Source of the DNA: Escherichia coli
Lineage (GTDB): Bacteria; Pseudomonadota; Gammaproteobacteria; Enterobacterales; Enterobacteriaceae
Reading direction: 5' to 3' (one strand)
Length of the DNA: 64,000 nt
Assembly (NCBI RefSeq): GCF_003334815.1
Contig: NZ_QOWO01000017.1
Shown here piece by piece: positions 55,084-56,223 of this stretch (position 1 is the first letter of the stretch; each line of letters opens with the position of its first letter). The translations under genes were made by a program, and so were the position numbers. Below the pieces are notes generated by a model. The model was not told where the DNA came from. It worked only from the letters and a program-made list of their open reading frames with translations, and searched no databases.

Positions 55084-56223
55084 TTATCGCTGCGGCAAAT
55101 AACGCAGCGGGTTTACGGATTTCCCCTTGTAACGAATTTCAAAATGCAAGCGTGTTGAACTGGTTCCGGTGCTACCCATGGTTGCTATTTTTTGCCCCGC
55201 CTTCACTTCTTGTTGTTCCCGGACCAGCATTGTGTCGTTATGGGCGTAGGCACTCAGGTAATCATCATTATGTTTGATGATAATCAGATTACCGTAGCCG
55301 CGCAGCGCGTTACCAGCATAAACAACGCGGCCATCTGCGGTCGCGATAATTGCCTGTCCTTTGCTGCCTGCGATATCAATCCCCTTGTTGCCCCCCTCAG
55401 AAGCGCCAAAGGTTTCGATCACTTTGCCCTCAGTCGGCCAGCGCCAGGTGGAGATAGGCGTACTGGTTGATGTACTGCTGACAGTTGGCTCGGTTGTGCT
55501 TGCTGTTGGTACCGTTACAGGCGCTGTGACCGTGGTCGCAGCTGGCTTGTTGTTCGGCAACATTTTGTTAGCACTCTGTTCACCCGAAGATTCAGAATAC
55601 GTAATTGTCGGTTGCGACGCAACAGCAACGGTGGAATTTTGTGCAGGCTTGATCACAACTCCTTGCTCTGCTGCGTCGGCCTGGGTAATGGCATTTCCGC
55701 CAGTGATTGGCGTACCGGAAGCATTACCCACCTGCAAGGTCTGACCAACGTTCAGCGCGTATGGTGCCTGAATATTGTTGCGCTGAGCAAGGTCACGGAA
55801 ATCGTTGCCAGTAATCCAGGCGATATAGAAAAGTGTGTCGCCTTTTTTCACGGTATAGGTACTGCCGCTATAACTGCCTTTCGGAATGTTCCCATACTGA
55901 CGGTTATAGACGATGCGTCCGTTTTCCATCTGTACCGGCTGCTGAGCTACTGGCTGCACTGGCTGGATTTGCGGTTGTTGAGTAGCCTGAATTTGTGGCT
56001 GCTGTACCGGCTGAATTTGCGGTTGCTGCGCTGTAGACGTCGTCCCCATTTTCGGCGGCGGCGTAATCAACATACCAGAATTAGTATTTGCAGGCGCATT
56101 GCCATTAACGGAGCTGACCGGTGCCGGTGGATTTGAAGTGTCAGAACAGCCTGCCAGCCATAGCGAAACCAGTGACAAAGCCGCAATGCGGCGAACGGTG
56201 AATTTTGGGCTTCCCGCGCTCAT
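55084..56223 (-). CDS. nlpD: Murein hydrolase activator lipoprotein NlpD (LysM plus LytM/M23 domain), 379 aa
   Basis: Lipobox LAGC, Q/P-rich repeat region, LysM ([13 protein letters not shown]), C-terminal M23 domain. Confidence 0.94.

Follow-up and report, generated by a model that had tools for sequence, protein, structure and literature searches.

Coding minisatellites, or VNTRs, in the linkers of bacterial envelope proteins consist of head-to-tail units with lengths in multiples of 3 nt. Units are gained or lost in frame, the junctions fall in short exact direct repeats, and alleles differ from strain to strain; the repeat in the nlpD gene of Escherichia coli described here has all of these properties. 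Simple-sequence contingency loci of Neisseria and Haemophilus resemble it in that repeat-mediated misalignment takes place inside a surface-protein gene. The only close precedent found in the literature searched is a 12-bp deletion in nlpD of Salmonella Typhimurium UK-1 (PMC3391293), which affects the same gene, lies in the same Q/P-rich N-terminal part and is likewise in frame. Two Salmonella NlpD proteins, P0037 and P0038, differ by TPQQ.

The linkers of the outer-membrane lipoproteins RcsF, Pal and NlpD run from the lipidated Cys to the first folded domain, and share with the repeat segment a low complexity, poor sequence conservation and a roughly conserved length (bioRxiv 10.1101/2021.01.05.425367; PMC12826056). 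The two linkers of NlpD are predicted to be disordered, and the N-terminal linker alone shows weak mid-cell enrichment (PMC5533458). When residues 29-64 are removed, about 60% of NlpD stays in the inner membrane and complementation is impaired (bioRxiv 10.1101/2021.01.05.425367). The gene also carries the start site of the major rpoS promoter, 567 nt upstream of the rpoS ATG (PMC8545128), while the promoters nlpDp1 and nlpDp2 are situated upstream of nlpD and an nlpD-rpoS read-through mRNA is known (PMC2676305).

Here we analysed the nlpD repeat in a stretch of 64,000 nucleotides of E. coli DNA (contig NZ_QOWO01000017.1 of assembly GCF_003334815.1), hereafter called the window, and compared it with complete E. 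coli genomes and with NlpD proteins. The repeat is best read as an old, imperfect coding tandem repeat in the NlpD tether, which has changed in length by misalignment at short repeats, and whose length variants are probably near-neutral and do not act via rpoS. We assign this reading a probability of roughly 85%.

Results

Architecture of NlpD and anatomy of the repeat

The nlpD product of the window matched NCBIfam NF008123 (murein hydrolase activator) with 678.7 bits against a cutoff of 311, and residues 4-379 were covered. All the features of the NlpD family were present, namely the lipobox, a LysM domain, a degenerate LytM (M23) domain and the gene order pcm-nlpD-rpoS, with pcm upstream and rpoS downstream of nlpD (Table 1). 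The LAGC lipobox was invariant across an alignment of 27 NlpD orthologues. The repeat (residues 66-98) sits between Cys26 and the start of LysM at residue 123, which is the position of a lipoprotein linker, and the published 29-64 deletion stops just before it.

Annotations of the 5' end of nlpD (56176-56223, minus strand) differ. RefSeq (PGAP) places the start at an internal TTG, giving a protein of 364 aa in MG1655 that begins MSLVSLW (locus L021, 423-1517), and the ATG-started ORF encodes 379 aa. The shorter annotation looks doubtful, because only the longer form has the positive region (K7, R11, R12) before the hydrophobic core of the signal peptide. Three chimeric proteins, P0091, P0044 and P0094, carry the N-terminal part of NlpD with 100% identity over 81-85% of the query. 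Its fusion partner is a Sigma70 region 4 domain in P0091 (403 aa) and UbiD-type domains in P0044 and P0094, which suggests that natural deletions or rearrangements may have joined nlpD to rpoS or to other genes.

An earlier reading of the window, made from the sequence only, had described residues 66-92 as Q/P-rich octapeptide repeats inside nlpD. This description was exact: the residues map to 56028..55948 on the minus strand, and the plus-strand string given in that reading is the reverse complement of unit 1. A tail, AQQPVQ, extends the segment to residue 98 (55930), and Gln and Pro together make up 70% of the resulting 33 residues (66-98, 55930-56028). The periodicity is far beyond chance in both DNA and protein. 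At an offset of 24 nt, 33 of 48 in-register positions matched as against 21.0 ± 1.7, with a maximum of 27, in 2000 codon shuffles; in the protein, 12 of 16 positions matched as against a mean of 4.0 and a maximum of 8 in shuffles.

Table 1. Features of nlpD, its repeat and the rpoS promoter in the window
Feature	Positions	Strand	Remarks
nlpD CDS	55084..56223	minus	379 aa, AmiC-activating lipoprotein; ORF, NF008123, Pfam
Lipobox LAGC, residues 23-26	56146..56157	minus	Cys26 is the lipidated residue; sequence
N-terminal linker, residues 27-122	55858..56145	minus	Lipid anchor to LysM; repeat in distal half
LysM domain, residues 123-165	55729..55857	minus	Pfam PF01476, E = 4.2e-12
Degenerate LytM / Peptidase_M23, residues 279-372	55108..55389	minus	Pfam PF01551, E = 4.6e-33
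Repeat unit 1, CAGCAACCGCAAATTCAGCCGGTA (QQPQIQPV)	56005..56028	minus	Sequence
Repeat unit 2, CAGCAGCCACAAATTCAGGCTACT (QQPQIQAT)	55981..56004	minus	Sequence
Repeat unit 3, CAACAACCGCAAATCCAGCCAGTG (QQPQIQPV)	55957..55980	minus	Sequence
Degenerate tail QPVAQQPVQ, residues 90-98	55930..55956	minus	Sequence
Nested 9-nt microrepeat, CAGCCAGTG CAGCCAGTA (QPV QPV)	55948..55965	minus	Sequence and census
11-nt exact direct repeat CAACCGCAAAT, unit 1 copy	56015..56025	minus	-48/+48 nt junction
11-nt exact direct repeat CAACCGCAAAT, unit 3 copy	55967..55977	minus	48 nt from unit 1 copy
12-nt exact direct repeat CAGCCGGTACAG, first copy, end of unit 1	56002..56013	minus	Spacing fits +72 nt allele
12-nt exact direct repeat CAGCCGGTACAG, second copy, end of tail	55930..55941	minus	72 nt from first copy
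Major rpoS promoter within nlpD	55588..55622	minus	-35 TTGCGT 55617-55622, -10 TATTCT 55594-55599, start ~55588; outside repeat

The copies had also been called near-identical, and at the DNA level this does not hold. Identity was 17/24 (71%) between units 1 and 2, 20/24 (83%) between units 1 and 3, and 15/24 (62.5%) between units 2 and 3. The longest exact in-register run was 8 nt at offset 9 (CAGCCAGT), 9 nt at offset 24, 11 nt at offset 48 (CAACCGCAAAT) and 12 nt at offset 72 (CAGCCGGTACAG). Tandem Repeats Finder, run with a minimum score of 30, reported no repeat because the units are too divergent.

The units differ mostly at synonymous sites, and in pairwise comparisons of the QQPQIQ cores none of the eight codon differences changes the amino acid, which argues that the array is old with its peptide conserved, and is not a fresh duplication. 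NlpD of E. fergusonii has three units too. The identity of the amino-acid cores despite synonymous divergence is a hint that the peptide may be more than a passive spacer.

Length alleles among complete E. coli genomes

Of the 5,426 complete E. coli genomes in the census, 5,420 had an nlpD match to a 221-nt query, and the annotation at every E. coli match of this query was nlpD. Six genomes gave no match, and in two further E. coli records the match to the nlpD repeat region was partial; nlpD may be disrupted or deleted in these. Sorting genomes by their coverage of the 221-nt query and their identity to it misleads, since joined BLAST pieces put 57 one-unit genomes at a coverage of at least 80%. 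Junction-specific queries of 42-43 nt were built in such a way that three-unit genomes cannot seed a match, and two analogous junction queries with zero matches validated the 43-nt design. With a full-length construct of the +72 nt allele, joined two-piece matches tie at 100%, and the +72 count rests on the junction query.

The one-unit allele (-48 nt) was present in 57 complete E. coli genomes (1.05%) by the 43-nt junction query, and was confirmed by perfect, full-length, one-piece matches to a synthetic one-unit construct. The five-unit allele (+48 nt) was carried by a single genome, PapRG-04-4, which was the weakest match of the 221-nt query; its junction was found in no other genome among the 5,426. 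The QPV microrepeat occurred in 1, 2 or 3 copies, with three copies (+9 nt) in 4 genomes and one copy (-9 nt) in 7. Synthetic-allele queries revealed no two-unit or four-unit allele in the 5,420 genomes, and the +72 nt junction query had no match in the 5,426. Length variants thus total about 69 of 5,420 genomes (~1.3%), all of them in frame, and about 98.7% of the genomes have the canonical length.

A comparison of repeat number across E. coli genomes had been proposed as a check by the sequence-only reading, which was to be abandoned if the number proved invariant in E. coli and Shigella. The number is not invariant: complete genomes have 1, 3 or 5 units, and the repeat expands and contracts, always in frame. 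The label slippage-prone was nevertheless too strong for copies so divergent and for a locus at which ~98.7% of genomes have one length. The implied step of a single 24-nt unit was absent from the 5,420 genomes, and the events use offsets of 9, 48 and 72 nt instead. With its head-to-tail units and its differences in copy number, the repeat is a length-polymorphic coding tandem repeat (VNTR/minisatellite). No prior description of this polymorphism in E. coli nlpD was found in the literature searched, which does not imply that it is unpublished.

Alleles beyond the complete genomes, and conservation

Further alleles came from other data. The E. coli protein P0003, from draft data, has 24 additional residues, and its duplication agrees with the 72 nt that separate the two copies of the 12-nt repeat. 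The protein database also contained one-unit proteins under the names Shigella dysenteriae, S. flexneri and S. boydii, and P0123 has the one-unit allele and additionally lacks one QPV. A divergent Escherichia (GCA_026283405.1, RDNP01000004.1, L022 1501-2718), with 95.6% identity to the window in rpoS and 93.6% at the 3' end of nlpD, has seven QQPQIQ units. In its DNA, units 4-6 repeat units 1-3 with 100% identity, an exact duplication of 72 nt, which indicates that an array of four units was recently enlarged by this duplication.

The two end motifs, PQIQPVQ first and QPVA.QPVQ last, are retained in other Enterobacteriaceae, in which the sequence between them varies and the tether from Cys to LysM is usually 88-98 residues long. 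Deletions between repeated motifs are occasional in Enterobacteriaceae, as in P0050 of Citrobacter freundii, and QPV copy number varies in Kosakonia cowanii. Residues 66-98 were the least conserved part of NlpD, with 55% identity to the E. coli residue and 12% gaps, as compared to 91-98% identity in the domains.

Junctions and the origin of the alleles

The junctions themselves point to the mechanism. The extra unit in the five-unit allele of PapRG-04-4 is a hybrid, with its 5' part from unit 3 and its 3' part from unit 1, joined within CAACCGCAAAT. All ten one-unit loci examined had an identical junction in the same 11-nt repeat, reciprocal to that of the five-unit allele. Events of +9 or -9 nt fall in the 8-nt CAGCCAGT repeat, and the +72 allele fits the spacing of the 12-nt repeat. 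Every junction corresponded to the longest exact direct repeat at its spacing (8 nt at 9, 11 nt at 48 and 12 nt at 72). At offset 24, a 9-nt in-register run is present with no observed allele, whereas the 8-nt run at offset 9 has alleles; therefore, homology length alone does not predict the spectrum.

The location of the junctions in short exact direct repeats is what misalignment predicts, and the slipped-strand mispairing proposed by the sequence-only reading is borne out to that extent. The exact direct repeats of 8-12 nt common to the units occasionally allow the DNA to misalign, either by replication slippage or by short-homology deletion and duplication. Such misalignment yields the rare in-frame alleles of -48, +48, +72 and +9 or -9 nt.

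Recurrence of the one-unit allele

Ten one-unit loci, five three-unit loci, the five-unit locus and the window were aligned, giving 49 SNP sites. The one-unit allele was found on at least 4 flanking haplotypes. The first (ECCWS199, P276M) is identical to the window; the second, O157:H7 (EC4115), differs at 1 of the 49 SNPs from the three-unit O157:H7 strain Gim1-1; the third is that of OkiPb01695; and the fourth (AMSHJX01, ESBL 15, NN5 and others) is nearly identical to the three-unit AR436. A SNP at 56029 (GCG vs GCC), 1 nt away from the repeat, already distinguishes one-unit haplotypes from one another. The two +9 alleles examined also lie on different DNA backgrounds.

The simplest reading of these haplotypes is that the one-unit alleles represent independent misalignment events, the alternative being very short recombination tracts. 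A single origin, with spread by homologous recombination and no recurrent slippage, appears unlikely. The nlpD-rpoS-mutS neighbourhood is known to recombine, and an identical junction in 10 of 10 one-unit loci examined is what a single origin would leave; however, misalignment at a single 11-nt repeat predicts that identity equally. One-unit alleles moreover match the local three-unit backgrounds on both sides (EC4115 and Gim1-1; the AMSHJX01 group and AR436), and with one-unit loci differing 1 nt from the repeat, a transferred tract would be a few tens of bases.

The O157:H7 carriers of the one-unit allele include EC4115, TW14359, SS17 and SS52. SS17 has been placed in clade 8 and clusters with spinach-outbreak strains (PMC4321836). 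About two dozen O157:H7-type genomes had the allele (EC4115: L006 701-743), and Gim1-1 and TR01 had three units. The -48 nt nlpD allele may serve as a simple lineage marker: it can be sized by PCR and is common to the O157:H7 group with EC4115, TW14359, SS17 and SS52.

Length of the tether

The 70% content of Gln and Pro and the low conservation of residues 66-98 are consistent with disorder. AlphaFold2, with 27 close orthologues, gave a mean pLDDT of 31.8; as the known LysM and M23 domains scored poorly too, this model does not bear on disorder. We infer that the segment is a flexible or extended spacer under a loose constraint on its length, its Q/P character and the end motifs PQIQPVQ and QPVA.QPVQ.

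Recurrent loss of 16 residues could, on the other hand, be adaptive. Convergent shortening in pathogens would then tune the reach of NlpD from the outer membrane to the peptidoglycan, and would alter AmiC activation, outer-membrane sorting or envelope properties. The same allele indeed occurs on several haplotypes, its carriers include the four O157:H7 strains named above and the proteins of the three Shigella species, and linker length matters in Pal (PMC12826056) and RcsF (bioRxiv 10.1101/2021.01.05.425367). A mutational hot spot alone would, however, give the same recurrence; the allele was also found in commensal-type isolates from chicken, human and water, at an overall frequency of 1%; and longer as well as shorter alleles exist. 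An adaptive one-unit tether is, therefore, improbable, and the specific claim that the 16-residue shortening is a convergent adaptation of pathogenic lineages (the O157:H7 group including clade-8 strains, and Shigella) seems a little more doubtful again. If it were true, the shortening would affect how outer-membrane position is coupled to septal AmiC activation, or how efficiently NlpD is sorted to the outer membrane.

Near-neutral change by misalignment remains our reading. Length variants are tolerated, as they persist throughout the related O157:H7 group and are present in Shigella, and they are probably near-neutral, as judged only from their persistence in successful lineages.

Relation to the rpoS promoter

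The repeat had been placed in the region that holds rpoS promoters, and it was supposed that rearrangements there could affect nlpD and rpoS alike. The two do share the nlpD gene, but not the same region of it. With the rpoS ATG at 55021, the published start site falls at ~55588, with TTGCGT-17-TATTCT a few nucleotides upstream. The repeat (55948-56028) is 360-440 bp upstream of this start site and outside the -35 and -10 hexamers. Within nlpD it sits at 195-275 bp, downstream of the nlpD promoters and upstream of rpoSp, and is absent from the 567-nt rpoS leader. A sigma-70 consensus scan of 55000-56400 returned no promoter; the published rpoSp hexamers are visible there, and the scan is too strict for rpoSp. 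No RNA family was found in 54900-56400 with Rfam at E <= 1.

It is very improbable that changes in repeat length alter rpoS expression through the rpoS promoters in nlpD. Read-through transcription from nlpDp1 and nlpDp2 includes the repeat in the nlpD-rpoS mRNA (PMC2676305), which speaks for such an effect; its distance from the rpoSp start, its absence from the leader and the lack of an Rfam element in the interval scanned weigh against any such effect, and the authors of the Salmonella UK-1 study judged the 12-bp deletion in the same way, as lying outside the rpoS promoter region (PMC3391293). Because the repeat is so far upstream of the rpoS promoter start site, we infer that the length variants do not act through rpoS. 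The proposed link with rpoS is thus weak, and the idea that the repeat touches the rpoS promoters is corrected here.

Two observations concern rpoS in the window itself. A natural SNP at 55591 (minus strand) falls just after the -10 hexamer, 3 nt before the calculated start site of rpoSp; it is A in the window and some strains and G in MG1655, O157:H7 and others. In addition, rpoS (54029-55021, minus strand) has an amber stop at codon 243 (GAG to TAG, 54293-54295), so that sigma-S ends ahead of region 4, after 242 of 330 residues. Over 54200-54400 even the closest of the 5,426 complete E. coli genomes has one mismatch, and the amber base is in none of them. Codon 33 is GAG (Glu) in the window and CAG in K-12 MG1655. 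With 16 differences from MG1655 over 4601 positions, the window comes from a strain other than K-12, whose rpoS allele is private and probably null.

Discussion

The nlpD repeat is a low-rate coding minisatellite and an ordinary linker feature. That the variable repeat is a phase-variable contingency locus, or its variants assembly artefacts, can be dismissed: tandem coding repeats of surface proteins are sometimes of the former kind and repeats can be mis-assembled, but here the units are only 62-83% identical, exact runs do not exceed 12 nt, changes are in frame and 98.7% of genomes have one length, and the same junctions recur in many independently finished genomes and follow lineage, as random assembly error would not.

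The finding has little weight for biology at large, being a textbook case of short-direct-repeat misalignment in a low-complexity linker. The natural alleles of 1, 3, 5 and 7 units are nevertheless ready-made tests of the importance of tether length in NlpD, after the linker work on Pal and RcsF. The linker deletion tested in NlpD took away residues 29-64, whereas the natural repeat alleles remove or add only 3-24 residues, within 66-98.

Phase-variable contingency loci have a long tract of identical units and switch frame or expression at high frequency, and the nlpD repeat has neither property. Unlike the simple-sequence loci of Neisseria and Haemophilus, it has no long perfect tracts, no on/off switching by frameshift and no high-frequency variation, and it does not belong with them. 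It belongs with the coding VNTRs of envelope-protein linkers and differs from them in degree: its units have diverged (62-83% identity) and, because of this divergence, its events are rare and skip the single-unit step; with only ~1.3% of genomes varying, it makes a poor typing locus. The Salmonella UK-1 deletion (PMC3391293) involves a different repeat unit in a different species and was reported to be strain-specific. In contrast, the -48 nt allele of E. coli is recurrent, and is found throughout related lineages.
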